A stretch of DNA of 64,000 bases from a virus. The DNA is taken from the IMG/VR virus record IMGVR_UViG_3300027741_000027, positions 64,001 through 128,000 of that record; one strand, written 5' to 3'. The position numbers were made by a program, and so were the translations under genes. Of this stretch, positions 1,931 through 60,406 are shown piece by piece (the first letter of the stretch is position 1; every line of letters begins with the position of its first letter). Below the pieces are notes generated by a model. The model saw only the letters and a list, made by a program, of their open reading frames with translations, was not told the DNA's origin and searched no databases.

Positions 1931-2350
1931 ATGCAAACATTTGTACCATATGATGATTTTGAGCTTTGTGCCATGACGCTTGATAATAAGCGCCTTAATA
2001 AACAACGCATTGAGTCATTTCAAATCCTACGCGCTATTACTGATGATACTTACGGTTGGCAAAGTCACCCTGCTACAAATATGTGGCGTGGTTATGTTGG
2101 CGGCCTTGTATCTTACAGTCTTGCAATATGTCGTGAATGGCGTTTGCGTGATGGTGCTGACAATACTGACCTTGAGGGTCGCATTGCAGCATTTGGTGCA
2201 GATGACAGGCTTCCAGCATGGTGGGGTGATGAGCGTGTGCATGAATCGCACCGCTCTAACCTCTACCATAAGGAACCAACTTGGTATGAGCAGTTTTGGA
2301 TTAATCTGCCAGAGCTACCATACTTCTGGCCAACTAAAGAAGGCTACTGA
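1931..2350 (+). CDS. pyrimidine dimer DNA glycosylase / endonuclease V family (MSMEG_6728-like)
   Basis: MQTFVPY...LDNKRLNKQRIESFQIL...GWQSHPATNMWRGY...LPAWWGDERVHESHRSNL...LPYFWP signature. Confidence 0.9.
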   Translation: MQTFVPYDDFELCAMTLDNKRLNKQRIESFQILRAITDDTYGWQSHPATNMWRGYVGGLVSYSLAICREWRLRDGADNTDLEGRIAAFGADDRLPAWWGDERVHESHRSNLYHKEPTWYEQFWINLPELPYFWPTKEGY

Positions 2351-5300
2351 GTCCAGTCAGAAGGAATTGTAAGGTCGCCCGGATCATCTGGGTGTTCTAT
2401 TTTACATATTGGGCACCAAGGGTATGTTTCTTCCTGTAGGTTGCCCAGTTCTTCTGCTGTAAAATCAGTCATATACATTTGGGTCAAAAGGTCGTGCTTG
2501 CCCTCTTCGTGGTCGAAACGCTCTGATTCTTTAATGTCTTCTGCAATAGAGTTATAGATTTGAGGCCAATCGACCTTAGATTCATCAATGATGCTTGCTG
2601 TTTCATCTGCCCTTGGATCCATGCCAAAAATTTCATCAAAGCCTTCAGTAAGAGCCTGACCACCTTCGCTCATATGTTCCCGTCCCGTTGGGCGCTCATC
2701 ATAAGGAATATCATTCCATTCTTGAGCGTCTTCTAAAGCTTGTTTATTATGAGGGGCGATGACCGCCTGTGTTGCCCAAATAGCAAACTCGTTAAGCGGA
2801 GTAAAGTTCTTAACCATTTCCCTTGATTGCATGTAATGATTGTATTCATTGTCAATCATTACTTTGGTATTCCAAGTTTCCCAATTGGTTGAACCCTGAT
2901 GATCTGCTGTTTTTCCAATTCTAAGCCATTGTCCGTTATATGACTGCCACCATTTGCCTTCACCGTCTAACATAACGATTCGATTATCAATTTGAACTGG
3001 CGTGTTAATTGGAACCCCGGTTTCTAAACCGTAATCTTGCTCTTGCTGCTGTGGAATTTCAACCTGTGGCTTAGGCTCATTTTCCCACGCCGGATCAACC
3101 CTGCGCCAATAGTTTTTTGCATCATTAGGATCCATTAACCCTTTTTCAAAAATATCTTGCTTTCTTTGTTCAAATTGAACATCTCTTTTAGTTGGGAGCG
3201 GTTGTTTTCTGCCGAATAACTCTTCATATTCTTGTGCAAATTCGGGATCAGATAAATCGGGCGCAATGATATTTTCATTTTCATCAAATTCCATTAATTC
3301 ATGACCGGTCAAAAGATTGTCAATGCCTAGGGCGCCTCCCATTTCACTGCCAAAGCTATATTTGCCTTCACTGTCAGCGGTCATTCCAAGGACTTTAATC
3401 ATTTTATTGGGATCATTATCAAAAAAATTTAACAGCCTTTCTTCGTCGCCCTCTTTAAACGCCATATTTAAATTATTCATATGACCGCCATTTTCAATAA
3501 GTTTTTCAATAAGAAACACAACTAGATCTAAACTAATGTCATTAGCTATTTCGTGTTGCGTTTTGTGGGGCAGATTATTTGGATCCAATGTAATTGTTTC
3601 ACTTGAAGTTTGAACGCCTTGGGCCATTGCTGCGTCTAGTCCCGCCCACCAACTCATAATTGCCGCCTCGGTGTTTTTAGCCACCCAACCAGAAACTGGC
3701 TTAGAAACATAAAACGGATTTTGGTTTTGAGATAAAACTAGTTTTTGACGTTCGTATTTCTCCCTATCTTTTTTTAAAGTATTTGGGCGTTTGATGTAAT
3801 CTCTATGTAACTTTGGAGGTTTTTGCTTACGGAATTTATTTCGAATAGACCAAGAGAAACTAGTCTCGCCCGGATTTTCCTCGCTATACGGCGTGTTCCC
3901 TCTTTCAAGAAGCGTTTCATCAGAGGGCATTTCTGCATCAATGACAGACCAATTTTCTAATTTTGGAACGTCAAATCTTCTTTCTATTTTTCTCTTCTTT
4001 AAAAGTCGCTCAGCTTGCTCGGGACCTAATTTTTCTTTTATGCGTTCTACTTCAACCGGCGACCATTGTTTAAACTTATCGGTTCGGTAATCTCTTATTC
4101 TTTGAACCATGTCATTGGCAATACCTACTTTAATTGTTGATCCAGATTGAAATGCATAAACATAATATTGATCATTAAAATCTACCGCTCTTTTTGTAAA
4201 CATAGCGTCGCGATCATCTAAATTTGATCTAAATCTTTGTTCTAGAATAGTTGATCGCCTTGAACCTGATTGCGACAACAATTCTTTTTCGCTATCAGTC
4301 ATTGGCAGATTGGGGAATTTTTCAATTATCTTTTGTTCTAATTTTGCCATAAAATCATCATAATCAAAATTAGAAATAGAGCCTCCCTGTGCTTCTCTTT
4401 CTTCCTCAACTAAATTTTTAATTATAATCGGCAACCTTTCATTGTACGCTTTTTGTAATTTAGGATTTTTTAACTTTTCTTCGTTGCGGACTTTTATTTT
4501 AGACAAATCAGCAGTAAGCGTTCGATATAAAGAACTTTGTTCATTTATACCCATCTCTTGATATCTTCTTTTAAGAACATTTCTAATTTGTTCTTCAACT
4601 TGAGGACGACTTAAAGTCAAAACGCCATTATGCTTTTTTATATCCGCATTAACTATTTCTTTTACTAATTGAGAAACGTTGTTTTCTCTCATAAATTTAA
4701 TTTCTTCTTTAGTCCTAGCTCTTTTCAATCCCTGACTGAAATTGTCATGCATTTGACGGAACCTTGTTTTTAAAATATAAAATTCATTTTCGTTTAATCC
4801 GAGAGACTCGGCAAATACCCTTGACAAAATTTTAACTGATAATGGGGCAAAAGACGCATTACTTTGACTACGCATGTTTTCTAAATACTTTGAAATAATC
4901 TGTCTGACCGATTTTGTGGTAACGAGACTGTACAGATTTTCTAAATACTTGATTTCATCCTTATTAAAATAAGGGCTTCCATCTTCATTTTTTAATAGCT
5001 TTACATCATTAATATTTTGCCCATGACTGATGTTAGACATTTTTTCAAAGAAAATGTTTTTTGCGTTGCTATTAGCGCTTGTTATAAATTTCCAAGACCC
5101 CGCCCTAATGCCAGCCTTATCATTACGACCATTTAATTCATACCATTTCATGGCAGACTCTTGGTCATCAACGTCCTCTTGGGTATATCCTTCAGGATAC
5201 GCCTGAGGATATTCTTGAGACAATTCATTGAAATTCCACAGGGTTTGTTGATTAGGGTTAATTTCTTGATTTTGAATTTGACCTTGTTCTAACACCGAAC

Positions 5301-6696
5301 TTGCTTCTGGTTGATTATTTAAACCTAATTCTTGACCAAATTCACCAGAAAACATTTGATCAAAATTTTCATCGCTAATATTAAAGTTAGACTGCAACCA
5401 TTCTTTACCATACTCACCAAGATCTGGAGCCTTACCGCCATTGTTAGCCATAACGCCAATAAAATATGCAATAAGATCAGGAGTAATTCCGGCACTATTG
5501 GCCATAGGAATAGATTCGCACATGTGAAGAACTTTTTCTTCCTCTCCCTGTTCATTTTTAATTACAGGGAGCGTTTTTCCTTTTTGTTCTCCAATGGGAG
5601 AGGTCTGAATCATGCAGTCATCTCTGCACCAGTTAATAATCCGCGCTTCAATAACTTCAGCCGTCTTTTTCTTCATTTCGGGACTGACATAATGAATGAT
5701 CTCGCCCTGTTCATCTGCGGATCGAACAATTTTTCTATTGCGCCCATATGGAGTTGTATGATAAAACTGGTTTAGATGCTGCGGACTAAATTGTTGATCA
5801 AAAAACAGTGTTGATTGTCCTCCGGGACCTTCAATAGGAATTTCTCGCAATTCGTCTGGATCGGTATGCCATTGCCATTCCGGATTATTTTTAAATTGTT
5901 TTCTGTTCTGTTGTTTGTATCCCTGTTGGCGCGTTTTAAATCCATTTCCGGTAATGCCAACTTTAATTGCTACTGGAGAAGTAATAACATAAAGAATATG
6001 CGGACGGTCATCCATTGGAATTTTCTTTTGTGCCTTACCCCCAACAATTGTTTTTTGAAAATAATTCCAAACTAATTTTGGATCTGTATCAGGGTCAATG
6101 TATTCTATACGCTCGCTGGGGTCTTCAACTTCTTCTTTGTTGTATTTATGCATAGCCTCGTTATATTTTTCAATGCAACCTTCAAAGATATTTTTAAAAC
6201 GTTGATAATCTCCGTCATGAAGACTTTCATACAAACCGTTGCCCCAACCTTCAGGAAAAGCAGGTTGAAATCCGGTTTCATACATATCGGTATCTATCTC
6301 TTCAGCAATAAACATTACAAAGTTTGCTAGAGCTTTGTCTCTCCATCTTTTAACTCCCTTGGCAACGGGATTTTCCCATTCATAATCATCTTCAGAAGAA
6401 GAATGAGTAGATCCAGCCCTAATTCCAGCCTTATCATCCCTAAAAGGATCAAGAGGGAAGTTCTTAATAGGCTCTGATACACTATTGGGCCAATCACAAA
6501 GGGGGCAGCGACCATCAACAAGGTTGTTCTGATTGCAAGTTTTGCAAGGAGTGTCAGATTCCTTGCCCTTGCCTTCAGGGTATCCTCCGCCGGGGCGGGC
6601 TACATTTGGATAATGGTCGGGCTGAACAGCTTTGCCGGATGAATCATCTTCTCCCCAATCGGAGTCCGGCTTATGACTAAAATTCCAAAGGCTCAT
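2344..6696 (-). CDS. 1450 aa modular protein with two GIY-YIG-like (T5orf172) domains and Zn ribbons
   Basis: LYVITSPVAIKVGIT...R..GY and YVYAFQSGSTIKVGIA...R..DY; CKTC/CPLC at the N-terminus, CPIC at the C-terminus. Confidence 0.7.
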   Translation of the reverse strand: MSLWNFSHKPDSDWGEDDSSGKAVQPDHYPNVARPGGGYPEGKGKESDTPCKTCNQNNLVDGRCPLCDWPNSVSEPIKNFPLDPFRDDKAGIRAGSTHSSSEDDYEWENPVAKGVKRWRDKALANFVMFIAEEIDTDMYETGFQPAFPEGWGNGLYESLHDGDYQRFKNIFEGCIEKYNEAMHKYNKEEVEDPSERIEYIDPDTDPKLVWNYFQKTIVGGKAQKKIPMDDRPHILYVITSPVAIKVGITGNGFKTRQQGYKQQNRKQFKNNPEWQWHTDPDELREIPIEGPGGQSTLFFDQQFSPQHLNQFYHTTPYGRNRKIVRSADEQGEIIHYVSPEMKKKTAEVIEARIINWCRDDCMIQTSPIGEQKGKTLPVIKNEQGEEEKVLHMCESIPMANSAGITPDLIAYFIGVMANNGGKAPDLGEYGKEWLQSNFNISDENFDQMFSGEFGQELGLNNQPEASSVLEQGQIQNQEINPNQQTLWNFNELSQEYPQAYPEGYTQEDVDDQESAMKWYELNGRNDKAGIRAGSWKFITSANSNAKNIFFEKMSNISHGQNINDVKLLKNEDGSPYFNKDEIKYLENLYSLVTTKSVRQIISKYLENMRSQSNASFAPLSVKILSRVFAESLGLNENEFYILKTRFRQMHDNFSQGLKRARTKEEIKFMRENNVSQLVKEIVNADIKKHNGVLTLSRPQVEEQIRNVLKRRYQEMGINEQSSLYRTLTADLSKIKVRNEEKLKNPKLQKAYNERLPIIIKNLVEEEREAQGGSISNFDYDDFMAKLEQKIIEKFPNLPMTDSEKELLSQSGSRRSTILEQRFRSNLDDRDAMFTKRAVDFNDQYYVYAFQSGSTIKVGIANDMVQRIRDYRTDKFKQWSPVEVERIKEKLGPEQAERLLKKRKIERRFDVPKLENWSVIDAEMPSDETLLERGNTPYSEENPGETSFSWSIRNKFRKQKPPKLHRDYIKRPNTLKKDREKYERQKLVLSQNQNPFYVSKPVSGWVAKNTEAAIMSWWAGLDAAMAQGVQTSSETITLDPNNLPHKTQHEIANDISLDLVVFLIEKLIENGGHMNNLNMAFKEGDEERLLNFFDNDPNKMIKVLGMTADSEGKYSFGSEMGGALGIDNLLTGHELMEFDENENIIAPDLSDPEFAQEYEELFGRKQPLPTKRDVQFEQRKQDIFEKGLMDPNDAKNYWRRVDPAWENEPKPQVEIPQQQEQDYGLETGVPINTPVQIDNRIVMLDGEGKWWQSYNGQWLRIGKTADHQGSTNWETWNTKVMIDNEYNHYMQSREMVKNFTPLNEFAIWATQAVIAPHNKQALEDAQEWNDIPYDERPTGREHMSEGGQALTEGFDEIFGMDPRADETASIIDESKVDWPQIYNSIAEDIKESERFDHEEGKHDLLTQMYMTDFTAEELGNLQEETYPWCPICKIEHPDDPGDLTIPSDWTQ

Positions 6697-9100: not shown

Positions 9101-9242
9101 GCTTAATATGCCAAGCCTTGCATTTGCGGCATTTGAAAAAATCCCATCTGCCAATATGATTAAATGCTTCATAAGCGGCAGCATAAGCGGACGCATATTT
9201 AATTCCGCACTTGCGGCCTTTAAATGCTTGGATGATGCCCAT
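9093..9242 (-). CDS. 49 aa small Zn-binding protein (not in ORF track)
   Basis: MGIIQAFKGRKCGIKYASAYAAAYEAFNHIGRWDFFKCRKCKAWHIKQK; C...C-x2-C-x3-H pattern typical of small phage proteins. Confidence 0.6.
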   Translation of the reverse strand: MGIIQAFKGRKCGIKYASAYAAAYEAFNHIGRWDFFKCRKCKAWHIKQK

Positions 9243-18207: not shown

Positions 18208-18282
18208 CTTTTAGCCGGGATTCTCACCCTGTCTACGATCAGTCTAGCAAATCGAATGTAAAGGAAGGGTAAAACTATGAAA

Positions 18283-26741: not shown

Positions 26742-26896
26742 TTGCTGCTCCTTTGTTTTGTTGTATTCAACTGCTGAACAGGAGTGTAGCAGCTATTTCA
26801 TCATTGAAGAGGATTTTACCAAGATTTTACCTTTCGATATGATTCTGGCTTGATTAATCTTATTAAAATAAGAAAAACAAATCTTTAATTAATACA

Positions 26897-35152: not shown

Positions 35153-36652
35153 CTAAGTTCCAAACGGTCTTGGTTTCGTATCAGGATCGCGGCGCTCTGT
35201 TCCCTCATCAGGTTTATTTTTTGTTTTTGGTGGAGCAATATCAGTCATATCTAAAAAACATCTGACATGCGTAGGTGTTTTTGGACCACCTGACAATGGG
35301 AAGATTGCTTCAACGTATGCAAGTGCAGGATTTGCGTTACGTTCTTGAACATAAACCTCGCCAACTGATCCCGCTGGCACCTCTACAAACTTACCTACGC
35401 CGATAGCATTACTTGGCCCTTCAGTTTCACCAATAACAGATTTAGCTAGTGTAATTGTGTCACCGCTTTTATAATTATACCAACCGGGTGTGGCAGCCAT
35501 CCTATGACCATTATAAGTATTTGACCAAATGCTACCAAATGGATTTCTTTCACTTGGTTGGCGAGCATGAGGAACAGACACAGTACCGGGAGGCGATGCT
35601 TGACCGTAAGGTGATTCACCGGGCCTAGTATACTGCTGCTGTTGACGTTGCTGCTCTTTAAGTTGTTCTAATGGCGGAGTTTGTATCTTTTTCCGTGGCT
35701 CAAATCCTAAGAATCTTTCTTCTTCTGGAGTTAATTGAGTCTCAGGACGATCATATTGTTGAGGCGCAAGTGGGCCAAGCCTTTGCTCAAGCAGTTCATC
35801 AGGAGACACAGCACCAACATCTTCTGGTTTAAATGGTGTAAGCTGTCGAATACCACGCGCACCCTCAGGAACAGAGGGAACGATACCACCGGGTGTGCCA
35901 CCGGGTCCAACTTGGCCGGGTGGTAGAGCAAATGGGCTAGGCTCACCAACAGGGCCAACTGGTGCCTGTGGTGGAAGCTCAGTAACCATTGCCTCTTCAA
36001 CCTGTTGCACTGGTAGCATCTTAGATAAAAAGTAAAGTGCTAGAACGTGAGAGCATGGGCGACCTTCATAAATCTTCCATTGACGAGTACGTTGCCAAGC
36101 AAACTGCTGCCACTTGCATTCACAATGCCATCCTGTAATGACGGGCGAAGCAGGGTCTTGGCGCATGATGGTTGATTCATAAGTTCCATGATCGCCAATA
36201 ACAGTACCAACAACATGATCTTGGTCATTAATTATAACTGTTACATGGCCTGTATTGACTAGTCGCTTTGCTTTCTCAACAAGGTCGTTCCAGTTATCTT
36301 GGCGCTCAATAACGCGCTCGCGCTGTCTAGCATTAAGTCCTTCATCTTCATCAGCAAAACCTCTGCTTGGTTGCTCTTGCTCAGTTCTTTCTTTATCAAG
36401 AATTTCAGCAGGGTCGCCTTCAGCAAAGTGAAAGGTTGCCCGCTTGTATCCAAAACCCTCTAGTTGGGCAGCTACAATCTTTTCAGCAAGGATCTTATCA
36501 AGGGTGCTTCCCTCTTTAGCCATGACTACAGCATCGCCGGGTTTACCCTCCCACCATTCAACAATTGAATTGCCGATCTTCTGAGTGCGAGCAGGTAGGG
36601 GTTTAACAGAGGCAATAACTTCGCGGATGTATGAAACGTCTTTATTCATCAC
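35153..36652 (-). CDS. SWIM Zn-finger-containing modular protein
   Basis: WHCECKW...GRPCSHVLALY (CxC...CxH); Pro/Gly-rich linker. Confidence 0.7.
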   Translation of the reverse strand: MMNKDVSYIREVIASVKPLPARTQKIGNSIVEWWEGKPGDAVVMAKEGSTLDKILAEKIVAAQLEGFGYKRATFHFAEGDPAEILDKERTEQEQPSRGFADEDEGLNARQRERVIERQDNWNDLVEKAKRLVNTGHVTVIINDQDHVVGTVIGDHGTYESTIMRQDPASPVITGWHCECKWQQFAWQRTRQWKIYEGRPCSHVLALYFLSKMLPVQQVEEAMVTELPPQAPVGPVGEPSPFALPPGQVGPGGTPGGIVPSVPEGARGIRQLTPFKPEDVGAVSPDELLEQRLGPLAPQQYDRPETQLTPEEERFLGFEPRKKIQTPPLEQLKEQQRQQQQYTRPGESPYGQASPPGTVSVPHARQPSERNPFGSIWSNTYNGHRMAATPGWYNYKSGDTITLAKSVIGETEGPSNAIGVGKFVEVPAGSVGEVYVQERNANPALAYVEAIFPLSGGPKTPTHVRCFLDMTDIAPPKTKNKPDEGTERRDPDTKPRPFGT

Positions 36653-37230
36653 TGATTAACTGTTCGTTTCCTGTAGTAAGTCAAGCCCTTGCTTTTAAGC
36701 AGGCTACGATCCCTTGTAATTGTTTTATTTAGCAAACGTGCAATATTCCTCGGTTTATAATTAATAACCTCTACAGACACGTTTACGTTGCCCCAACGAG
36801 TTGGTTCGTTTCTTGAGTAATCGTGGTTGTGAATATGACCATGCACATGAATCTTTAGCTCATCCTCGGACTTAAACAGCTTAGGATAATGGTCAAAGCT
36901 AATCTCATACTGCCTGTATTCCATTTTAAATGGTTTAACAACTTCAAAGCCTAGCTTGTCGTAATCATATTTACGTTTATCATGATTGCCAAGAATAATA
37001 TATTTTTTGCCAGTGAGTTTTGGAGCGACCTCTGACTTGAAATAATGAAAGTATTCATCGCCTCCCATCATCAGATCGCCCAAGTGAAGAATTACATCGT
37101 TCTCTTTTACCTTTTTGCGCCAATGAGCAATCATTAGTTCTTCATGATACTTGGGCCTGTCGCAATACTTAACAATGTTTTTATGACCGAAGTGAGTATC
37201 GGATATTACATAAAAAGGAAATTTAATCAA
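36649..37230 (-). CDS. calcineurin-like metallophosphoesterase
   Basis: SDTHFGH, LHLGD, GNHD, HYP, HGHIH. Confidence 0.9.
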   Translation of the reverse strand: MIKFPFYVISDTHFGHKNIVKYCDRPKYHEELMIAHWRKKVKENDVILHLGDLMMGGDEYFHYFKSEVAPKLTGKKYIILGNHDKRKYDYDKLGFEVVKPFKMEYRQYEISFDHYPKLFKSEDELKIHVHGHIHNHDYSRNEPTRWGNVNVSVEVINYKPRNIARLLNKTITRDRSLLKSKGLTYYRKRTVNQ

Positions 37231-39895: not shown

Positions 39896-41831
39896 TAGCT
39901 AACTTAGTTTTCTTTCCTTCAGCGTCAAGGAGGTTAATCCTCTTAACACTAAACTCTGGGTATTGATAATACCATAATGTCAAAATATGATTTACTGTGT
40001 AAGGCATAGTGGTCATGGTTGTAATGTTTACTGTGCCGCCCGGTTCATACATACCTTCCACAATGCCTGCGGGTGTAAACTTGCCGGGGATATCTGATGT
40101 GCGCTGGCCGGGGTGACCGACTGTAACCGTGTCTGCTGGGATATCGTAAATAAACGGAATAGGATCTGTAAGAACATCCTTAGGCTCTCTGGCCGCCATA
40201 TGAACCCATGTCTTGCCATCTACATTAACCCAACCACGACGACGAAGCACAGTGGCCTCCCAATCATGCGCAATGTGAGTCTCTAAGTAAGGGTGATGCC
40301 TTTTAACCTGATGCTCTAATGCAGAAAACACTCCACGGTTTCTAACTGCTGAATAGATCATCCTTAGCTTTTCATCCCTGACAGCAGCATAGCCAACGGG
40401 TGAGCCATGAAGATACGCTACATAAAACATATCGTCATCAGTGTAGCCAAACGCTCTAGTATATTTATCAAATGGGCCGTCAACCCTTGCAGCTTCTGTC
40501 ATGCCATAGACTGGCATCGTAGTTGGCTGCTGCTCAGTGAAGTGTGGTGGGTTAGTTTGATCCATGTCAAGCTCTGGAAATTTACCATCCTCAAGAACCT
40601 CGCCATCATCGCCATGCTCTTCCCTGCGATGCTCGCTAAACAAATGCCAATCGGGAAAAATCTCATCGCAGATAGGACACTTATGAACACCAAGCTCAGT
40701 CTCTGAATTGATTGGCGTATCGTCCTCTGCTTCGCCCTCTACAGGATTCATTGGTGGTCTTTTATCACTAGGTATACCAAGATCCTCCTGCTCCATTGTC
40801 TCATTGCGCTGAATAAGGTTATTTGAAGAACCGTAAAGTCTAATGCCCTGATCGCCTGCCCACTCAAATAACTGGGGTAAGACGGTTGTGTAAGCAGGAT
40901 TGATACGAGCCTTCTTGCCAATGATTTCAATGGTGCCATAAAGGGGTTTACCCTCGGCCTCTAAAGCAAGGACTGCATGAGAGGTTTTACCCATGTATAA
41001 ATGATTATTAGCCCAAACGTAGTTAAGCACTACAGGGCGCTTGGCTGGCTCTAAGCTCTTGCTTACGACTTGACCATGAATATCCTTAAGACCATTCCAC
41101 TTCCAACCAACCTGATCAGAGTAATCTTTAAAGATACGAGCCATTGACTTGAGGTTTACATTAGAGTAAACATCCCATGTTGCTTCATTATTAGATACGG
41201 TAACTGAACCGCTAGCCATTGGGCCAGAATGATCATTGCCGATATTTAAATGACGGGCAAGATCATCATGGTTAAACGTATCTTCTGGAGAGATTTCTAA
41301 TGATCCATTAGCATAAAAGAAGTTGTATGTACGAACGGGATCATCAGAACCATCAATGGCTGGTTCATCATGCCAATACTGCTGATCGTTGTCGCTTTGC
41401 CTCTGTGGTTCTTCACCGGGGAACGCATCGCTTGTCAAGCTGTCGTTAGAGACCTTTAAAGCGGTCTCTAAGTTATTAAAAATAAGATTAGCTCTCTTAC
41501 TAAAGATCTGAGTTCTTTTATTTAAAACGGGCTTATATGGCTTGTAACCATCATTGCTGGCATAAACAGGATTCCCTGAATGATTGCCAGTGATATCAAG
41601 AATATATGACTCATCTGGACTAAGCCAAGCAAAGTGTCCATTACGTTTACCAATAAAGCCGCCAAGCCTCTGTTGAAGCCAAGCGGCAGTAACATAACAT
41701 TGGCCGCCGCCCACTGACGCATTCTTAATCCATCGTGGGTAGCGAGTATCATCCGCCCAAGCCTGCGCAGCCGCAACCTTAAAGGCATCAATCTCACCCG
41801 GCGTAATTAATTTTGGATTCCAGTCCATCAC
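39879..41831 (-). CDS. 650 aa modular protein: YunG/papain-like domain, C2H2 Zn finger, GNAT-like domain
   Basis: GQCYVTA...GH...LDITG; CPICDEIF...HRREEH; YVAY..G.PVGYA....SAVRNRGVFSAL. Confidence 0.6.
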   Translation of the reverse strand: MMDWNPKLITPGEIDAFKVAAAQAWADDTRYPRWIKNASVGGGQCYVTAAWLQQRLGGFIGKRNGHFAWLSPDESYILDITGNHSGNPVYASNDGYKPYKPVLNKRTQIFSKRANLIFNNLETALKVSNDSLTSDAFPGEEPQRQSDNDQQYWHDEPAIDGSDDPVRTYNFFYANGSLEISPEDTFNHDDLARHLNIGNDHSGPMASGSVTVSNNEATWDVYSNVNLKSMARIFKDYSDQVGWKWNGLKDIHGQVVSKSLEPAKRPVVLNYVWANNHLYMGKTSHAVLALEAEGKPLYGTIEIIGKKARINPAYTTVLPQLFEWAGDQGIRLYGSSNNLIQRNETMEQEDLGIPSDKRPPMNPVEGEAEDDTPINSETELGVHKCPICDEIFPDWHLFSEHRREEHGDDGEVLEDGKFPELDMDQTNPPHFTEQQPTTMPVYGMTEAARVDGPFDKYTRAFGYTDDDMFYVAYLHGSPVGYAAVRDEKLRMIYSAVRNRGVFSALEHQVKRHHPYLETHIAHDWEATVLRRRGWVNVDGKTWVHMAAREPKDVLTDPIPFIYDIPADTVTVGHPGQRTSDIPGKFTPAGIVEGMYEPGGTVNITTMTTMPYTVNHILTLWYYQYPEFSVKRINLLDAEGKKTKLANETSS

Positions 41832-44756: not shown

Positions 44757-46029
44757 AACGGGTATCTCCGTAATACAGCACACCATTAACATAGGTGGCT
44801 AGATCGATTTTAAATTTACCATCTGGCCAAACTCGCGCAGTTGCGAAACCATTTAACCAGTCAGGAGCCACAGCGTAGCCAAGGCCTCCTTCAACACGAC
44901 ACATACAACCTGTTTCAACACCAGTAATCGTTGAAGGTTTACCATCAATGTCATGCTTAGTCTTATAGACTAGGCTCTGACGATGAGTATGACCAACAAC
45001 AGTACTATAACCAAGATGCTCAAGTGTTGCCAACGCAGATGCGCCAGAACCCTTACGAGCTACCCAACCATGCCTTGCAGCAAGATAAGGCGACACCTGA
45101 TACTGAGCATGCTTCCAATCACCATCAGGGCGAATGAACTCAATACCAAGCTCATCAAGACGCAGCAAATGCTCTACATCAAGAAGAGGATTTTCGGGAA
45201 TTTCATTACGGCCAACGCCACGGCGAATACCATAAAAATCCCTAAGGTTATCAATGACAGCCCTACGAAGGCGATAGTCATGATTACCTTCAAGTTTAAC
45301 CCAATTAGTAGACTCGCTGCTTTCTACATAATCACGAAGAATCTGATAACCGATATCGATGCATTCCTGAACACTTGAATCTTGCTCAGGGGTATCAGGG
45401 TGACGGCTAATCGTAGGTAGATCAATCGTATCACCAATTAGAACGCCACGACTAGGCTGATAATCAGCAAGCCACTGACAGAACTTCTCATGAAGGTCTT
45501 GATCATGGAAAGGAGCCTGCTGGTCACCAACAAAGACGACAAGCTCGGGCTTACCCTCACCCTTTTTAAATAGACCCTTAGACTTCTTGATCTGAGGCCT
45601 CTTGTAGTCGCTAGGAATACGAGCAGGGATAATTGCATCAAACGGTTCAATGCGAGTAAGCGTAATCCTAGCCTGCTTTGTTACGCCATCAGCGGTTTCC
45701 CTAATCGTAAAAGTGGGCTTCTCAATCTGCCATTCATTAGGATCAAGATTATGACTGGCAACTAATTCTTCAATGTCGTAAGTGTCATTGTAAACACTAG
45801 TTACAATGATTGCGCGATCTTGATCAACCTTAGTATAAGGCTGCTCAAAGCCAGAATCGGGTTTAATAACACCCCAACGCTTAATTGCCCTACGGACACT
45901 AGCCTCAGAAGTTTTAATTCCTAATTCTTTTTTAATTTTACGAGCAAGCTGAGTATTGCTAAGACCTTCTAAGGTCCACGCTTTAATCTTCGCTTGATGT
46001 GGATCCAGCGGACTGTTCTTTTGATTCAT
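44749..46029 (-). CDS. N-terminal HTH plus calcineurin-like metallophosphoesterase
   Basis: GLSNTQLARKI...SEASVRRAIKR HTH; GDQQ, GDTID, GNHD, HG, GHTH motifs. Confidence 0.85.
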   Translation of the reverse strand: MNQKNSPLDPHQAKIKAWTLEGLSNTQLARKIKKELGIKTSEASVRRAIKRWGVIKPDSGFEQPYTKVDQDRAIIVTSVYNDTYDIEELVASHNLDPNEWQIEKPTFTIRETADGVTKQARITLTRIEPFDAIIPARIPSDYKRPQIKKSKGLFKKGEGKPELVVFVGDQQAPFHDQDLHEKFCQWLADYQPSRGVLIGDTIDLPTISRHPDTPEQDSSVQECIDIGYQILRDYVESSESTNWVKLEGNHDYRLRRAVIDNLRDFYGIRRGVGRNEIPENPLLDVEHLLRLDELGIEFIRPDGDWKHAQYQVSPYLAARHGWVARKGSGASALATLEHLGYSTVVGHTHRQSLVYKTKHDIDGKPSTITGVETGCMCRVEGGLGYAVAPDWLNGFATARVWPDGKFKIDLATYVNGVLYYGDTRYE

Positions 46030-48256
46030 CCTCTAATTCCTCTGTTACAAAACTGTAACTTTTCTTGTTTTTTGCCTTAGGTAGAGCATGAACAGTTTCA
46101 GTCTCATTTTCTATCCTAGACCTTGTAGGTGCAAGTTTAGCATGTTCATCATCAATATTCAAATCACTTGCAGATTTTGTTGCAGTTGAAGCTGGCTTGG
46201 GCATACCGGGTCTACGCTCAAAACTTGCAGGAGGAGCAAACCCATTGCCAATGTTAGAATCGTTGCCAGCGACTGGAGGTGGGCCACCACCGGGTACACC
46301 AGCAGGACCGCCACCAGTTGGGCCAAGACCTTCAGGCATACCGGGCATTACAATACCGCCACCGGCTCCACCGGGAAGTCCACCAGCAGGGCCACCGGGC
46401 ATGCCGCCGGGACCGCCTGCACCAGCAGGGCCACCCTCTGCGCCACCGGGCGCAGGTTGCTGTGGTGCTGCCTCGCCCATAACGGTGCGAACCTCTGCAT
46501 CAAGATCGGGCGGAATTGGAAGGTTGGCTCTATCAAGAGCCTTCCAAGTCTCAACCTTAGCCTGCTGCTGATTAATAGTCTTATACATAAGCTCTTCGTT
46601 GTATTCATCAACAAGCTCACGAATATCATACTTAACGCCAATCATAAGTTTTTGATCGGGGATTGGCAGACCCATTGCGCGAAGGCTCTGGAAGAACTGA
46701 CGCTGCGTTGCTTCATCACGAAGGTCAAGGGTCTGGAACTCAAGATCAGGAATAAGAAGTTTATGCTTAGTGACAATGTGCTTATTGCCATCTTCATCAT
46801 ATTCAACAACTTCTTCCATAACTGGTACACGATGAAGGCCGCGCTTTTCGTATTCCCAATGCTCCTGTGCCTCAGCAACAACATAAGCGCGATCCATGTA
46901 ATGCTTCTTAAGATAACCTTGGAAGGTACGAAGGATCTGATTAAGGAATTCTGCCTGTAATGCAGATGATGCATAGGGCTGTGAAGATGAGCCAGCAGAA
47001 AGCAATGATGGGTTGACACCAAAGATCTGCATGATACGACGCTCAATACGGTCAAAGTCATCACCAAGGCGCGGCATCTGCTCACGACCAAATACATTTT
47101 CTACCTCAAGGCCAAAGTGATGAACAAGAAGGCGGAAATCAGATGACAGGGCAATATCCATATCATCACGGAAAGCATCAAGCTCATCTGGGCCGGGGAC
47201 CCAAGGACCTTGACCATCGCCAAGTTCCATAATGCCAAGGCGGGCAAGAATCAGAGGCGAGTAAAGGCGCTCTGCAATTGCGTCCTGTGATGCAAGAAGC
47301 TTCTCTTCATGAATAAGAGTACGAAGGCCACGAAGTAGAATTGGGGTACCGTGATCATCCCAATCAGTAAGAGTGTTAGCAACCTGTTTAAGAAGCACAT
47401 CAGAAATTGGAATATGCTCATTGCGCCTAAGGTAAGGAATAAGCTCGGGATAATTCATTTCAAGCTGTGCAAACTCCTTAGCAGGAGATTTAGTCTGTGC
47501 AAGCTTCTTAAGATAATCAGGTGGGACAATCTTCATCTGGCGAGAACCAAGAAGAGGGAAGTTTTCAATAACAACATCTTCTGGGTTTAGAAGTTCTTCG
47601 CGCTCCCAAATGCCTAGATCTTCATCAAAAGAGCCAAGGGGGAATGCTTCACCAACTGTCCAATACTCACGGCCAAGCGATACCAAAAACTCAGGATAAT
47701 CAAGCTGATCAAGGAATAGATCCTCATAAAATCTTTGAAGTTTCTTATCTTTTGAATCAAGCTCCATGCCAACAAGCGGGAAACGAGTAAAGATGTCAAT
47801 AAGGATAGGAACTAGATAATGAGTTGCATAAAAGAGGCGAAGCCACTTGTGGAGCTTGTGCCTATGACCTTCGTCTGCAATATTCCATGGAAGACCATTT
47901 AGATCCCAAAATTCAAGCGGATCATAGAAACGAGGGATGGCAGAATAAACGTCTCCGCCGCCACCAGATGATGCAACACGGCGACCAAGGCGGCGGCTAT
48001 CGCCCATTGCCCTCATAAGCTCATTATTTTGCTCAATTTCAGAAACAGTTTGAGATACTTGAGTTTTACCTACACGACCGCGAGTTTGACCATAAGCTTG
48101 ATCACCAATAGCAGCTTTAAGCGGGCCGCCTGTAGCAGTAGCCATTTCATGCATTGTGGCTGCTGCGAGTTTAGCGCGAGCAGGGTTCTTTGGAAGAGCC
48201 ACGCCGCGTTTCTTGAGATTTTCTACCTGCGCATTTAACTTGTCTGTATTATCCAT
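45983..48256 (-). CDS. portal protein (cluster C / Bxz1-like)
   Basis: RFYDPLEFW, LFYATHYLVP..IDIFTRFPLVG, GREYWTVGEAFPLGSF, EELLNPEDV, QDAIAERLYSPLILARLG recalled from large actinophage portals; Gly/Pro-rich tail. Confidence 0.8.
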   Translation of the reverse strand: MDNTDKLNAQVENLKKRGVALPKNPARAKLAAATMHEMATATGGPLKAAIGDQAYGQTRGRVGKTQVSQTVSEIEQNNELMRAMGDSRRLGRRVASSGGGGDVYSAIPRFYDPLEFWDLNGLPWNIADEGHRHKLHKWLRLFYATHYLVPILIDIFTRFPLVGMELDSKDKKLQRFYEDLFLDQLDYPEFLVSLGREYWTVGEAFPLGSFDEDLGIWEREELLNPEDVVIENFPLLGSRQMKIVPPDYLKKLAQTKSPAKEFAQLEMNYPELIPYLRRNEHIPISDVLLKQVANTLTDWDDHGTPILLRGLRTLIHEEKLLASQDAIAERLYSPLILARLGIMELGDGQGPWVPGPDELDAFRDDMDIALSSDFRLLVHHFGLEVENVFGREQMPRLGDDFDRIERRIMQIFGVNPSLLSAGSSSQPYASSALQAEFLNQILRTFQGYLKKHYMDRAYVVAEAQEHWEYEKRGLHRVPVMEEVVEYDEDGNKHIVTKHKLLIPDLEFQTLDLRDEATQRQFFQSLRAMGLPIPDQKLMIGVKYDIRELVDEYNEELMYKTINQQQAKVETWKALDRANLPIPPDLDAEVRTVMGEAAPQQPAPGGAEGGPAGAGGPGGMPGGPAGGLPGGAGGGIVMPGMPEGLGPTGGGPAGVPGGGPPPVAGNDSNIGNGFAPPASFERRPGMPKPASTATKSASDLNIDDEHAKLAPTRSRIENETETVHALPKAKNKKSYSFVTEELEDESKEQSAGSTSSED

Positions 48257-48325: not shown

Positions 48326-49144
48326 TTACTCTACTGATTCGGTGTGCGTATCTTCTTTACCGAACGGTTCGTTGCTAACAAGGTAACGAACGCGAGTACG
48401 ACCGGCGCTCATAAACCCATGATTGCATTTGCCCTCGGGATGGGTTTCGCAACCTTTAGGACAATCAGTTTGCTTAAGAAGCTCTTTAGCTTCGTCTTCA
48501 TTGCCGCCTGCAAGAGCTTCAAATACAGCTTGAGCGGCATGAGGTGAAGGCTTATCGCCTTGAGACGAAGTTTTATCTGGCCCATGACCAACAGCGCTAG
48601 GGGCAGTTTCAAGAACTTCACCGATGGGTTTATTGCCGGGTGTAGTACCCGGAGCATCAGCTAAAGGGACGGGATTAGCAAAAGGTTGAGAATTTAAATC
48701 ACTTGATTTTTTGCTATGCTTATCGCATTTTTCGCATGAACCCGGAGCGCAAGGTTTAGTACCGGGAACACGCTTATAGCCTTCCCAACACTCGCATTTA
48801 TTTTTGCTTTGGTATTTATTACCATTGTAACGATCATAAATATCTTGTAAACAATTTTCGCAACCTCTACCCTGACAATTGGCGCAAGAGCTAAACTCGC
48901 ACTGCTCGCAACCAGCGCCTTGACAATAAGGACAATTAGGATCGCCCGGTGGTGGGGGTGGCGCTGCTGCCGCAGGTCCCGAATCGCGTTTAGGATGAGG
49001 GCGAAAATGCTGATCCTCAGGAGTGTAAGGATCAAGATCGGCTCGCCCAACCTCTAAATCAGCCCTTTTAAGAAGAAAGGGAAGGCCCTCATGGCGAGCA
49101 ATAGCCTTTTCAATATCGTAATTATCATCAGCAAAATGCTGCAT
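48326..49144 (-). CDS. Cys-rich modular protein
   Basis: CxxCxGxGC repeats, CWEGYKRVPGTKPCAPGSC motif, C-terminal C...GC..HPEGKC.HG. Confidence 0.75.
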   Translation of the reverse strand: MQHFADDNYDIEKAIARHEGLPFLLKRADLEVGRADLDPYTPEDQHFRPHPKRDSGPAAAAPPPPPGDPNCPYCQGAGCEQCEFSSCANCQGRGCENCLQDIYDRYNGNKYQSKNKCECWEGYKRVPGTKPCAPGSCEKCDKHSKKSSDLNSQPFANPVPLADAPGTTPGNKPIGEVLETAPSAVGHGPDKTSSQGDKPSPHAAQAVFEALAGGNEDEAKELLKQTDCPKGCETHPEGKCNHGFMSAGRTRVRYLVSNEPFGKEDTHTESVE

Positions 49145-49189: not shown

Positions 49190-51880
49190 TTACTTCCACT
49201 CATCTGGATCTTCCTCTTCTCCGCGCTCAAAGCGCTCAAGCTGTTCATCAGTTGGCCCATCAAGCTCATCAAATGAGTCAGGCTCGTCTGATTCTTCTTC
49301 ATCATGCTCATGAACAACTTCAACCCTATCGCCTTCGTCATCGCCGCGCTCAATGATTTCTTCCATATCTTCTTCTGGGGCAATTTCAGGCTCTGTGGCT
49401 TCGGCATCTAATTCATCGCCGCCATCTTCCCTAAACATTCTAATGTATTCCTGAGCGGCGTCAGGATCGCCCTGAGCTACGCCTCGTTCAATCTCGGCTG
49501 GAATATCGGGTTGAGGGTAGTTATTTGGATCAAACTCATGTAATGAAAAAGCTAATTCCTGAGCCTGCTGAAGCAAACCGCTTCTTACAAGCTGACGAAT
49601 AGCCTGCATATTTCCGCCCTCTGCCTGATCAAGAGCCTTTGCAATGTCTGGATACTCATTAGCAAGAGCATCAAGAATCATGCGGCCCGGACGACCCGGA
49701 TCCCACATTGCAGATTGCTTTTCAGCAAGCGCCTGTGGAAGTGAAACGTTAGTTACAGGATTAGCTTGGTTTTTATTAGGAAAAGTTTCTGCTGCCTTAG
49801 TTTCTTCTTGAATGTTTCTAGTTGCTTCAAATCCCGCCGAATCATGATCGCGCTTATTGGGTAACGTTTGACGTTCCCAAACATCATTATCGTACTTTTT
49901 TACAGTATCAAATGTATCCTCTTGATAATCAGGCTTATCTTTAATATCCATGTGACGAGTAGGATGAGGAGAATTGTCGCCCTCTGTCTTAATTGGCTTT
50001 AGATTACCATCTGGATTAGTAGCATTAGGCTTCCACTTCTTCTTGTCTATTTTAGGAGAAGGACCGCCTAAAGCTGATTCATCGCCTTTTGGGAGGGATT
50101 CGCGACCCTCCGTGGAGTCGCCGGTTTCAGGTTTAGCAGCAGTTACGCTAGAGAAAGTTTTAACCTTCATTGCGCCGGGAGCAACATCCTTAGCATTTTT
50201 ATTTCCTTCAAATGCGGCTTGAGTCTGAGCGCCAAATGTACCGTCAGCGCGAAGTCCACGATCCTGCTGAAACTGCTGAAGAGCGGCCTGAGTTTGATTG
50301 CCAAAAGTACCGTCAGCACCTTCCTTACCAAGATCATAACCCGAATGAAGAAGGTGAGTCTGAATATTCTTAACCTGATTTCCAGCATCGCCTACGCCAT
50401 AAGTGCCTTGCTCAGGAGTGAATGTAAAACCGGTTCCCTTAGCAGGTGAAGCAGGTGATGTTTGACCCTGAGCGGCTGGAGCCTGACCCTGAGCGGCTGG
50501 AGCCTGACCCTGTTGAGCAAGCAATTTAGTATTAATATCAAAAGTACCGTTAACGTTAGGAACAACAGCTTTCTGCACCAGTTCAGGATTCGACCAATCT
50601 AAGTTATCGTAAGTACCGGGTTTTGCCTGTGCAAGCTGATTAAAAAGAGCATATGGTTGATTAATTAATCCTGCATAATTTTCTGGCTTTCTAAGATCTG
50701 CAAATCCGGGATTTTCTATTAAAGCGTCGTGAACACCAGAATCTCCAGTTGCATAAGAACCAAGAACATCACTATAATCGTTTAAATCTAATCCGCCGCC
50801 ATAAGTTCTTGTTTCAGGATCGTAAACATCGTATGGACTGCGATTTGATTCCCAATCGCCTTCATAAGACATTTTGCGAGCGGCTTCTTTAAGATAAAGA
50901 GCGCGAGCCATTGCAGGAGTAATAGAAGAACTCTTTTCAAGATTTTCAAGATTGTTAAGCTCTTTAGCGCGAGCCTGAGCCTTTTCTTTAGAATCAAATG
51001 GGCCAGCAGCCTTTTCGTCGCCATCTTCAATTACAAAAAATTTGTCGCCCTTCTTCTCTACTTTATGAGCAGCGGCTTCCTTATTGCGAAGGTTTCCGCC
51101 GTCTTCTTGATCCTCATCCTGAATCTGCTTTTTAAGCCATGGTGAAACCTGCGAATGCTCATCAGCAAGTTGAACCTCATCCTGTGCTTTAAGGTGCTCG
51201 GGACGATCCTTAGAAGCAGTTCTAAAATGCTGATTGAACCACTGCTCAATAGCTTTCATTACAGAATCAACATCATAAGATGTTACATTGGCTAAAATTG
51301 TATCTTTGTCCTGATCAATGTGATATTTGGCAGTTTCATAAGCCTCAGAAGGAATCTGCTCTGCTGGAGTGCCGGGAGCAACTTCTTCAGGATGCATACG
51401 AACAAACTTAGTTGTGGCTTCGTCCCAAATAGGGTCATTAGAAGTTTTCTTTGATGATGTATAATCCCAATCATCACCAATATAAGGCATTTCGTATTTA
51501 TCAATAAATGGACCGTCATCCTCTGGATAATCATCTGAGTCGTCATCGCACTGCTCGCAACCATGACCGCCACAATTTTCGCACATTGGAGCTTCATCAG
51601 CAGGAGGCGTAGGACCAAATGCAGCCCTTACAGTTGCGCTGACTGCCTTGGCAATCTTCTCAGCGTCTCCGCCATACTCATTAGCTACATCGGCAGCCAT
51701 ATTAGCAATGTCCTGCTCTACAAGAGCAAGGCGGCCATTAAATTCTTTCTCAGATGAAGCCTGACGAAGGAAACTCGCAAAGGTATCATTAAAACGCTTA
51801 TTAGCAACTGCTACAGCCTGACGAGTAGCGACTTTATCGCCTTCGTCAAACATCTCAATATGTTCAAATAGTCCGCTCAT
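49190..51880 (-). CDS. 896 aa head-region modular protein with internal peptidoglycan-binding domain
   Basis: GDAGNQVKNIQTHL...GADGTFGNQTQAALQQFQQDRGLRADGTFGAQT (PG_binding_1); acidic C-terminus. Confidence 0.75.
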   Translation of the reverse strand: MSGLFEHIEMFDEGDKVATRQAVAVANKRFNDTFASFLRQASSEKEFNGRLALVEQDIANMAADVANEYGGDAEKIAKAVSATVRAAFGPTPPADEAPMCENCGGHGCEQCDDDSDDYPEDDGPFIDKYEMPYIGDDWDYTSSKKTSNDPIWDEATTKFVRMHPEEVAPGTPAEQIPSEAYETAKYHIDQDKDTILANVTSYDVDSVMKAIEQWFNQHFRTASKDRPEHLKAQDEVQLADEHSQVSPWLKKQIQDEDQEDGGNLRNKEAAAHKVEKKGDKFFVIEDGDEKAAGPFDSKEKAQARAKELNNLENLEKSSSITPAMARALYLKEAARKMSYEGDWESNRSPYDVYDPETRTYGGGLDLNDYSDVLGSYATGDSGVHDALIENPGFADLRKPENYAGLINQPYALFNQLAQAKPGTYDNLDWSNPELVQKAVVPNVNGTFDINTKLLAQQGQAPAAQGQAPAAQGQTSPASPAKGTGFTFTPEQGTYGVGDAGNQVKNIQTHLLHSGYDLGKEGADGTFGNQTQAALQQFQQDRGLRADGTFGAQTQAAFEGNKNAKDVAPGAMKVKTFSSVTAAKPETGDSTEGRESLPKGDESALGGPSPKIDKKKWKPNATNPDGNLKPIKTEGDNSPHPTRHMDIKDKPDYQEDTFDTVKKYDNDVWERQTLPNKRDHDSAGFEATRNIQEETKAAETFPNKNQANPVTNVSLPQALAEKQSAMWDPGRPGRMILDALANEYPDIAKALDQAEGGNMQAIRQLVRSGLLQQAQELAFSLHEFDPNNYPQPDIPAEIERGVAQGDPDAAQEYIRMFREDGGDELDAEATEPEIAPEEDMEEIIERGDDEGDRVEVVHEHDEEESDEPDSFDELDGPTDEQLERFERGEEEDPDEWK
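50463..50512. repeat. 21 bp coding tandem repeat (x2.4)
   Basis: TGACCCTGAGCGGCTGGAGCC twice plus a partial copy; encodes QGQAPAA linker. Confidence 0.9.
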
Positions 51881-52049
51881 TATATTTAAATACTAGTTTC
51901 TTTGTAATTGGATCGTAGGCGTCAAGCTCATAAACCACTATACATCTTGGACAAACAACTGCCTTTGGCGGAAATTCGACACACATATTCACCCATTTGA
52001 CTCCGCACACACAGCGCATCAGGTATTCTGATGTTAGTGAGCGGTGCAT
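51864..52049 (-). CDS. small Zn-ribbon protein
   Basis: CVCG...CPRC; start may be the internal Met. Confidence 0.55.
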   Translation of the reverse strand: MHRSLTSEYLMRCVCGVKWVNMCVEFPPKAVVCPRCIVVYELDAYDPITKKLVFKYNERTI

Positions 52050-52993
52050 TATAGGAAAAGTGAGTCGTCGCCAATTTTGTCGTAATCAGTGAATTCTTTA
52101 GCTGATGCCTCCTTGTGCATTTCTTCTTTTACTTCTACAAACATTGCACGACGCTGTTCTTCAACGCGAGCAAGCCACACCTTCTCATACTTCTCACGAA
52201 CATCATCATCGGCAGCCGCTGTCTTAGAGCGGATCCAATTTGAAGCGAGAGAACGGACTGTACCTGAGTCCGCAAGTGTCTCATTGTCAAGTCCAGCGGT
52301 AAAGGCCTCTGGGCCTTCATCCATAAGTTTTGCATAATCGGTTGAATTGGCTTCAACAATCATTTCGTTAATTGACTGATCTAGCCAAGTTGCTTCGCGG
52401 CCACCAGTAGGTCCACCCTGCTCAACAGCTTGCATGCTGAAAGGAGCAGGAGCTTCGTAAGCTGAAGTATGGCCTTCTTCAAGAGCGCGAATAACATCGC
52501 CGATCTCTTCCATCTCATAATTAGCTTGAGTGATAACATTAGCAACGCGAGCAAGGTCAGTATCAGAAAGACCTGAGTCAATAAATAGCGAAGCCTCAAC
52601 CTTAATTGCATCAAGGTCACGAACGCGATCTTCAATTGTCTTAGCATCAAATACTGAAACGGAAGATTCTACCTTCTTTTCAAGCTCTGCAATTTCATCC
52701 TTCTCTTCTTCTTCCTCTTCTTTAGAAAAAGTAAGCTTGCTAACAGGAAGTGAAGAAATACGACCATTCTCAAAACGAATAGTTACTTCATCTTCCCAAA
52801 GGCCCTTAACGCGGCCAAGAACCTTGCCCTTAAGTCCGTTAGGAGTTACAACGTGAGTAGCGCCCTCTGCTGATGCAAGGTGGGCAGCTTCTTCTTCTAT
52901 GAACATATCCTCTGAAACAGAGGCGACAATTTTTCCATCTTGATAAGTGTAAACACTACCATTTTTGAAAATATAAGTGGGTTCTGAATTCAT
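52049..52993 (-). CDS. hypothetical head-region protein
   Basis: 314 aa acidic, between TerL and portal. Confidence 0.75.
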   Translation of the reverse strand: MNSEPTYIFKNGSVYTYQDGKIVASVSEDMFIEEEAAHLASAEGATHVVTPNGLKGKVLGRVKGLWEDEVTIRFENGRISSLPVSKLTFSKEEEEEEKDEIAELEKKVESSVSVFDAKTIEDRVRDLDAIKVEASLFIDSGLSDTDLARVANVITQANYEMEEIGDVIRALEEGHTSAYEAPAPFSMQAVEQGGPTGGREATWLDQSINEMIVEANSTDYAKLMDEGPEAFTAGLDNETLADSGTVRSLASNWIRSKTAAADDDVREKYEKVWLARVEEQRRAMFVEVKEEMHKEASAKEFTDYDKIGDDSLFL

Positions 52994-60403: not shown

Positions 60404-60406
60404 CAT

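Follow-up and report, generated by a model that had tools for sequence, protein, structure and literature searches.

In herpesviruses, a C-terminal tail that binds the major capsid protein is common to protease and scaffold; an R-site follows the catalytic domain, an M-site lies shortly before the tail, and the cuts follow Ala and precede Ser or Thr, as in YLQA-T and VQA-S (PMC4498786). The prohead proteases of T4 (gp21) and phiKZ-like phages (SPN3US gp245) are reported to process many head and ejection proteins (PMC5694885, PMC10052503, PMC7411985). Polyvalent proteins are known from phages and conjugative elements; those of terminase-portal phages, which are very large, fast-evolving and built of multiple modules, have been proposed to be packaged and to be delivered together with the DNA, sometimes after proteolysis, in a paper that does not mention PcfJ (PMC5512222). 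Here we describe a short motif, [KR]-[TE]-A-[SA], in the head-assembly proteins of the phage of IMG/VR record IMGVR_UViG_3300027741_000027, and we discuss it as the candidate recognition site of a prohead serine protease. The window that we analyzed is a stretch of 64,000 nucleotides, bases 64001-128000 of this genome.

The prohead proteases of T4 and phiKZ-like phages cut after Glu (L/I-x-E, or S/A/G-x-E). In lambda (C/Nu3), Mu (I/Z) and P2 (gpO), protease and scaffold have a C-terminus in common, and this element, like the C-terminal targeting signal of HK97 gp4, directs them into the procapsid. The phage studied here has a genome of 136,021 bp with 40.6% GC, and we regard the assembly as closed because its termini overlap by 146 bp. 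Its portal is ~40% identical to the portals of Mycobacterium cluster C phages (Bixzunavirus) and of Gordonia Stormageddon-like phages. IMG/VR holds 63 related loci, with whole records of 127-170 kb and 41-64% GC. In the relatives G001-G004 (loci L080-L109), portals are 63-96% identical and GC ranges from 41% to 64%, so the lineage spans hosts of very different base composition. Coordinates marked "genome" refer to the whole record and all others to the window (Table 1). The set of open reading frames (ORFs) is a crude longest-ORF call.

The C-termini of two proteins, an 848-amino-acid (aa) protein with a protease domain and a very acidic 314-aa protein, led us to the narrow motif. Its core form was counted as [KR][TE][AS][ASN] within this genome and as [KR]-[TE]-A-[SA] in relatives. 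The large proteins of the window had 11 core motifs versus 2.9 expected, found only in the 2504-aa (6, with 0.82 expected), 896-aa (4) and 272-aa (1) proteins. There was none in the enzymes of the genome (2.2 expected), and none in its 1450-, 890-, 650-, 647-, 499- and 304-aa proteins or in the protein encoded at 8102-9046. The motif was then re-tested on deduplicated relatives of <80% identity, with permuted residue orders as controls. It was found 48 times in the protease family versus 3.8 expected (12.5x), 38 times in the 314-aa family versus 3.9 (9.7x), 9 times in the 896-aa family versus 1.8 (4.9x) and 8 times in the portal family versus 2.0 (3.9x). The control families gave 2 versus 2.7 expected (TerL), 1 versus 1.4 (phosphoesterase), 0 versus 0.5 (dNMP kinase) and 1 versus 1.0 (cement protein).

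Among the 24 possible orders of the residue classes, the true order came out top in the protease family (48 versus 25 for the next) and in the 314-aa family (38 versus 20), and it was also highest for the 896-aa and portal families. The 650-aa family had 6 copies versus 0.9 expected, and the true order was not the highest there. The motif was found in 106 distinct sequence contexts and thus persists while its flanks change; in the protease extensions, which cannot be aligned, R-T-A-[AS] recurs amid unrelated flanks. By these sequence comparisons, the narrow core [KR]-[TE]-A-[SA] marks the head-assembly proteins of the phage and its relatives, and it is order-specific.

The original prediction, made from the window alone, had used a looser pattern, [KRH]-x-[AS]-[ASN], and had placed it at the domain borders of the large acidic proteins. 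Every tetrapeptide it cited was present in the stated protein; the KEAS assigned to a 314-aa protein is in the one encoded at 52049-52993 and not in the one encoded at 8102-9046. Five of the cited examples (REAG, HTGA, THSS, ITSA and KTAD) do not match the pattern itself, which proved too loose. The 10 named proteins contained 38 matches, a density of 0.426 per 100 aa that was equal to the density in the remaining 143 ORFs. This raw comparison, which by itself would read as no enrichment, was discarded as confounded because the proteins used as background included other acidic head proteins as well as tail fibres, which are rich in Ala, Ser and Asn. When the expectation was corrected for each protein's own composition, the observed/expected ratio was 2.16 for core head proteins (P=3e-5), 1.33 for the window's large proteins (P=0.07), 0.94 for enzymes and 1.04 for tail proteins, the last two not significant. 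Conservation in the orthologs of four relatives was no better than background: the motif was retained at 39% of the target sites versus 40% in the background, and identity was lower at the sites (0.53) than in their flanks (0.58).

Some of the cited examples are also not independent of each other, because KEAN, KEAS and RTAS of the 2504-aa protein and REAG of the 890-aa protein occupy the same position of one repeated unit. Three others were rejected as conserved sites: KTSA at residues 118 and 1519 of the 2504-aa protein is not retained in the closest orthologs, and RQAS at residue 39 of the 896-aa protein does not keep its basic residue across 41 relatives.

These results could mean that there is no motif and that proteins rich in Ala, Ser, Lys and Glu simply match a loose pattern by chance at the cited tetrapeptides. 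The identical raw density and the background level of conservation would be expected in that case, and the loose pattern is expected ~7 times per 2504 aa. Against chance stand the composition-corrected and permutation tests, which gave strong, order-specific enrichment limited to head-assembly families, and the specific sites that are kept across relatives of 41-64% GC. We consider chance a highly improbable explanation of the whole. On this sequence evidence it is largely refuted for the narrow core, and it appears to stand for the cited examples in the 1450-, 647-, 650- and 499-aa proteins. The 1450-, 647-, 499- and 304-aa proteins and the protein encoded at 8102-9046 had no core site in the genome and no conserved one in relatives. 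Acidic proteins associated with the head do share a recurring short motif of the K/R-x-A-S type, which in several of them lies at domain borders. These five of the named proteins showed neither enrichment nor conservation.

The protease had been expected outside the window, and it was found there, ~21 kb before the window start. The capsid, cement and 848-aa protein genes lie 21-25 kb before this point, and the gene order protease, cement protein, major capsid protein (genome 38864-43390) is the same in Gordonia and Mycobacterium relatives. The head module is divided into two blocks. One, with TerL, the 314-aa protein and the portal, is at genome 110-119 kb, and the other, with the genes for protease, cement protein and capsid protein, is at 39-43 kb; tail genes, a cluster of small genes and the giant proteins lie between them. 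In phage RedWattleHog, unlike here, the head genes are contiguous. Residues ~92-275 of the 848-aa protein matched phrog_18299, 'head maturation protease' (E=4e-18), and phrog_2774 (E=6e-52). Its neighbours in the ESM Atlas were 'prohead core protein protease' clusters (0.97) and Peptidase_S78/S77 clusters (0.92), and a Pfam search with this protein gave no match. The candidate catalytic residues His109 (in VDHHN) and Ser187 (in GFSMG) are invariant in 13 relatives, as are His60, His148 and His213. From the profile matches and the language-model neighbours, we read the N-terminal domain as a prohead serine protease, putatively of the assemblin-like clan (MEROPS S77/S78 type).

In the protease, candidate sites lie at the domain border, near the N-terminus and ahead of the C-terminal tail. 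The end of the protease domain carries KEAS at residue 269, and roughly two-thirds of 22 aligned members have [KRH]-[ETQ]-A-[SA] there, as judged by eye. Near the N-terminus, KTAS at ~25 in relatives corresponds to RDAS here. The protein ends in ...VREASTAPATTQADSDDSALFM, and 35 relatives end in R-L-P-S-[LM]-x-[RK]-x-A-S followed by 10-20 residues and then D-S-A-L-F-x.

The 314-aa protein resembles the protease at its C-terminus. It ends in ...HKEASAKEFTDYDKIGDDSLFL, and its 38 relatives end in [KR]-E-A-[AS], then 10-16 variable residues, then P-D-[DE]-x-L-F-x. The site before the tail is KEAS or KEAA in G001-G004 despite flank identities of 0.32-0.41, and it is kept in most of the 38 members. 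Members of the protease family, among them those of cultured Gordonia and Mycobacterium phages, have the D-[DE]-x-L-F ending too. For example, the C-terminus of TinyTim gp97 is QRTAG...NDASLFI and that of RedWattleHog gp13 is ...DSDIFL. No usable match to the 314-aa protein was found in the ESM Atlas. We read it as a scaffold-like prohead-core protein, and its motif as a candidate protease site, because this layout matches the protease/scaffold system of herpesviruses.

Relatives in culture, with Mycobacterium smegmatis and Gordonia terrae as hosts, bear the same motif and tail. RedWattleHog gp9 has four RTA[SA] core sites versus 0.16 expected, and RedWattleHog gp12 and TinyTim gp96 have three core sites each. 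The latter two belong to a third family with an acidic, Phe-rich C-terminal tail, represented here by a 1129-aa acidic protein; its members end in L-D-L-E-G-T-H-Y-x(5-20)-F-L-F-G-x.

In the portal, the candidate site near residue 93 is part of a wider pattern, as 11 diverse portals carry RTAS, RTAA or KTAA at about residue 50-100. The capsid protein begins with 2-9 variable residues followed by a conserved R-x-A-[VI]-[SA]-S. The clearest candidate substrates would be assembly proteins, namely the scaffold-like 314-aa protein, the portal and the protease itself, and not concatenated effectors.

On balance, and with modest confidence, we favor [KR]-[TE]-A-[SA] as the recognition site of the phage's prohead serine protease, most likely cut between Ala and Ser/Ala. 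Conservation makes this protease the likely one to act on the motif. From the observed enrichment, order specificity, conservation, shared tails and border positions, we infer the following course of docking, packaging and cleavage, including the scissile bond. The D-D-S-(A)-L-F-x tails of the protease and the 314-aa protein would dock both inside the procapsid. After assembly, the protease would cut [KR]-E-A|S ~20 aa before the tail and free both proteins, as at the herpesvirus M-site, and it would cut the end of its own catalytic domain, as at the R-site. Other cuts may fall in the long extension of the protease, at portal residue ~93 and in the 896-aa protein, which is encoded just upstream of the portal. 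The capsid protein would probably be cut near its N-terminus.

The 2504-aa and 890-aa proteins require separate treatment, as they are built on a PcfJ-like unit and are similar to each other in their units. Pfam scores for PcfJ (PF14284) were 41.7 bits for the 890-aa protein and 30.1 bits for the 2504-aa protein (cut-off 25). The unit has 3279 homologous representatives at E<=1e-3, of 231-3507 aa and with up to seven matched stretches. Unit starts carry [KR]-x-[AS]-[SAG] immediately before the first helix in 30 of 42 cases. In an AlphaFold2 model of the 890-aa unit, with a predicted local distance difference test score (pLDDT) of 84.6, a zinc knuckle (residues 1-16) is followed by a low-confidence linker (17-29), REAG (30-33) and the first helix (34-41). 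The border claim of the original prediction holds for these two proteins because the unit start, at the junction of linker and helix, falls at the motif. If the proteins enter the procapsid, they could be cut into units in this flexible linker between zinc knuckle and first helix.

A fold search with the unit gave no match above Z=5; residues 145-216 showed a weak resemblance to one half of a GNAT fold (Z of 3.5-4.3 and E of about 1), which we did not count as a GNAT identity. A literature search on 'PcfJ' returned only C. elegans plasmid names. The 2504-aa protein had no match in cultured phage records, and its ortholog in a close relative is only 1322 aa long, without residues ~130-1385. The C-terminal domain of the 890-aa protein (655-887, phrog_36119) is stand-alone or fused elsewhere in relatives. 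Many PcfJ giants (homologs P0002-P0100) carry W-x-F-[SA]-K-T-A-[AS], as if a domain regularly ended just before the motif, and the 1450-aa protein has a similar context, S-W-K-F-I-T-S-A.

The gene of the 2504-aa protein is in an operon behind a promoter box. Boxes of the form TTTRC-N6-TTTAC were found 17 times versus 0.55 expected, all at 12880-26830 and 16 of them in the small-gene cluster, and most sit just 5′ of an extended -10-like TGnTAnnAT. The boxes likely mark a co-regulated, probably early, cluster of small genes.

The motif might be real and yet serve as a structural or binding element in helical acidic head proteins: a helix N-cap whose small residues precede a Lys-led helix, a docking site or a modification site. 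In favor of this are features of the PcfJ units. Their first helix begins right after the motif in the model, many homologs start 4-17 aa ahead of the motif position, stand-alone homologs keep the motif close to their N-terminus, and permuted residue orders are also common in the giants. Elsewhere, some sites, for example H-K-T-A-A at residue 132 of the protease, are within regions that are folded and conserved. A structural element would hardly explain why the motif persists in unalignable, indel-rich protease extensions with wholly different flanks, why its positions mirror those at which assemblin is cut (where the catalytic domain ends, and ~20 aa ahead of the common tail), or why it is absent from helical enzymes of similar composition. 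We consider this explanation unlikely.

Several points weigh against the protease recognition site that we favor. The narrow motif was chosen after seeing the data, and the family counts include inherited sites, so that the P-values overstate independence. An assemblin-like fold of the protease was unconfirmed: the AlphaFold2 model had a pLDDT of 46 (unusable), Foldseek returned noise and a PDB profile search was empty. A literature search found no cleavage data for the lineage, and no virion proteomics or N-terminal data for cluster C/Bixzunavirus phages. The capsid protein site has Val/Ile after Ala and not Ser/Ala. In the PcfJ-family giants, order specificity is weak (73 versus 64 for the next-best order), and the D-x-L-F docking tail is absent (0 of 150 homologs). 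Stand-alone PcfJ homologs keep the motif with few upstream residues, where a helix N-cap fits equally, and the operon of the 2504-aa protein has an early-type promoter box of the small-gene cluster.

The PcfJ giants (2504 aa here, up to 3500 aa and seven units in relatives) might be true viral polyproteins, loaded into the procapsid, cut by an assemblin-like protease at [KR]-[TE]-A|[SA] in the linker ahead of each unit and delivered as separate proteins to the next host. This is a speculative proposal to which we give a low probability. If it is true, the PcfJ polyproteins would be a tailed-phage counterpart of polyprotein processing, tied to a herpesvirus-style release of the scaffold.

The original prediction had gone further and had proposed that all large acidic proteins of the window are concatenated effectors, packaged, cut at their linkers and ejected into the host. 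Part of the evidence agrees with this. The 2504-aa and 896-aa proteins have more core motifs than expected, and relatives differ in their units through gain, loss, splitting and fusion. CxxC...CxxC zinc ribbons are almost confined to the large proteins, the protease extension and its 340-aa neighbour, and packaged multidomain proteins have already been proposed in print (PMC5512222). The large proteins also evolve far faster than core genes: in the closest relatives, core genes are 80-90% identical versus 25-46% for the giant proteins, in which the number of units also differs.

Other evidence is against the full model. The 1450-, 650-, 647-, 499- and 304-aa proteins and the protein encoded at 8102-9046 lack the core motif in this genome and their broad sites are not conserved, no giant of the window bears the capsid-docking tail, and the 2504-aa operon has the early-type box noted above. 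Gene neighbourhood is weak evidence because metabolic genes (phosphoesterases, dNMP kinase and ThyX) are interspersed. As for the cargo that had been listed, only T5orf172 and PG_binding_1 passed Pfam cut-offs and SWIM was below threshold; GNAT, nucleotidyltransferase and protease-like domains were not found with Pfam, and an NCBIfam search added nothing. We regard the full model as quite doubtful. An effector-polyprotein payload would be a minority reading, and for the 896-aa and PcfJ-repeat proteins alone.

Of the proteins in the window, the one of 896 aa is the best cargo-like candidate. Its four core motifs (0.43 expected) are KTSN at residue 145, RTAS at 220, and KEAA at 267 and 331; the KEAA at 267 has been retained in two relatives, where it precedes a DUF2188-like segment. 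At its N-terminus, the protein is similar to RedWattleHog gp8 and TinyTim gp88.

In the other large proteins, residues 117-208 of the 499-aa protein match a domain of large Bixzunavirus-type proteins, and the protein has a match to RedWattleHog gp12; neither the 499-aa nor the 650-aa protein had a match among PDB sequences. The 1450-aa protein has a clear ortholog in close relatives only, with a weak partial match in one divergent relative. It contains a second T5orf172-like segment at ~232 (by eye) and an exact repeat of DKAGIRAGS (residues 88-96 and 526-534), each copy ~140-310 aa before a T5orf172-like segment, an arrangement that points to a two-fold duplication within the protein. The 647-aa and 304-aa proteins have a 37-aa segment in common (46% identity), and the 647-aa protein repeats N-x-P-x-V-[EK]-H-P. 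In the whole genome, zinc ribbons of the form CxxC-x(2-14)-CxxC were found almost only in large acidic proteins, the protease extension and its 340-aa neighbour (window 2344-6696, 9220-11163, 27509-35023, 48326-49144 and 49190-51880; genome 40844-44620), with none in enzymes and tail proteins.

Table 1. Locations of the proteins, motifs and other features discussed (window coordinates unless marked genome).
Feature	Coordinates	Strand	Remarks
Major capsid protein	genome 38864-40009
848-aa protein	genome 40844-43390		protease = N-terminal ~270 residues
1129-aa acidic protein	genome 44654-48043
1450-aa protein	2344..6696	-	T5orf172 ~845-912 (Pfam), N-terminal zinc ribbon, no core motif
647-aa and 304-aa acidic proteins	9220..12077	-	no family match, no core motif
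TTTAC-N6-TTTAC promoter box	26815..26830	+	precedes operon of 51-aa ORF, 142-aa ORF and 2504-aa gene
2504-aa protein	27509..35023	+	three or four PcfJ-like units and DnaJ-type CxxCxGxG zinc fingers
2504-aa unit-border motif KEAN	27953-27964	+	from unit alignment
2504-aa unit-border motif KEAS	30011-30022	+	from unit alignment
2504-aa unit-border motif RTAS	32492-32503	+	from unit alignment
499-aa protein	35153..36652	-	no core motif; phrog_30974, phrog_2940
890-aa protein	37223..39895	-	PcfJ-like unit, residues 1-217
890-aa REAG, residues 30-33	39797-39808	-
650-aa protein	39879..41831	-	no core motif here; C-terminal ~100 aa widely conserved
Portal	45983..48256	-	phrog_2833, E=1e-156
Portal RVAS, residues 93-96	47969-47980	-	homologous to R-T-A-S in many relatives
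272-aa Cys-rich protein (5.9% Cys)	48326..49144	-	tandem CxxC clusters, one KTSS site
896-aa acidic protein	49190..51880	-	PG_binding_1 at residues 500-556 (Pfam), Cys cluster, hypervariable remainder
896-aa N-terminal 88-aa helical domain	51617-51880	-	conserved; 41 relatives aligned, 238-819 aa long
314-aa very acidic protein, scaffold-like (predicted; genome 116049-116993)	52049..52993	-	38 related loci, between TerL and 896-aa family
GDDSLFL C-terminal tail of 314-aa protein	52052..52072	-	candidate capsid-interior binding peptide
314-aa KEAS, residues 294-297	52103..52114	-	candidate M-site-like site ~17 aa before C-terminal tail
TerL	53031-55082		family control in motif tests
Lysin-like three-domain protein	57593-58954		VanY peptidase, PG_binding_1, GH25 muramidase
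Five tRNA genes	60331-61453	-	Met, Ile (anticodon tat), Met, Asn, Leu

The proposed arrangement resembles that of T4 and phiKZ-like phages, from which the processing of many head proteins at one consensus is already well known. As there, a single protease would act on capsid, scaffold, portal-proximal and internal proteins, many of them large and acidic, at one short consensus. The consensus here differs in ending in Ala, and the phage belongs to a Bixzunavirus/Stormageddonvirus-related lineage. Processing in the T4 and phiKZ-like systems has mass-spectrometric proof, whereas the evidence here is from comparison of sequences alone.

The likeness to polyvalent proteins is partial. The giants of the window are also very large, fast-evolving and multi-module, but their modules are repeats of one unit and not mixed enzymatic effectors. 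Domain searches of these giants detected none of the polyvalent signature domains (MuF anchor, ArdC-N, zincin-like peptidase, methylase-helicase pair). Polyvalent proteins are recognized by at least two distinct effector domains per polypeptide, whereas only PcfJ repeats and zinc fingers (2504 aa), T5orf172 (1450 aa) and PG_binding_1 (896 aa) were seen here. With respect to lambda, Mu, P2 and HK97, the difference is that the common tail is on two unlinked genes, with a conserved candidate cut site just upstream.

The closest parallel is with herpesvirus UL26/UL26.5. The phage protein likewise has an N-terminal serine protease domain and a scaffold-like extension, with one candidate site where the catalytic domain ends and another ~20 aa before the C-terminus (25-37 in herpesviruses). 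The protease and the scaffold-like protein have the same C-terminal tail by sequence; the protease fold is assumed from family membership. In contrast to herpesviruses, the protease and scaffold-like genes are separate, ~70 kb apart and not nested in frame, and P3 and P2 of the candidate site would be Lys/Arg and Thr/Glu, whereas herpesvirus P3 is hydrophobic. If the proposed site is correct, it would define the specificity of the maturation protease for a large, mostly uncultured lineage related to Bixzunavirus and the Gordonia Stormageddon-like phages. Annotators could then name the scaffold-like protein and predict which unnamed giants are processed head components. It would also tighten the parallel between phages and herpesviruses, with a cut after Ala, release and maturation sites, and a capsid-docking tail on both protease and scaffold.

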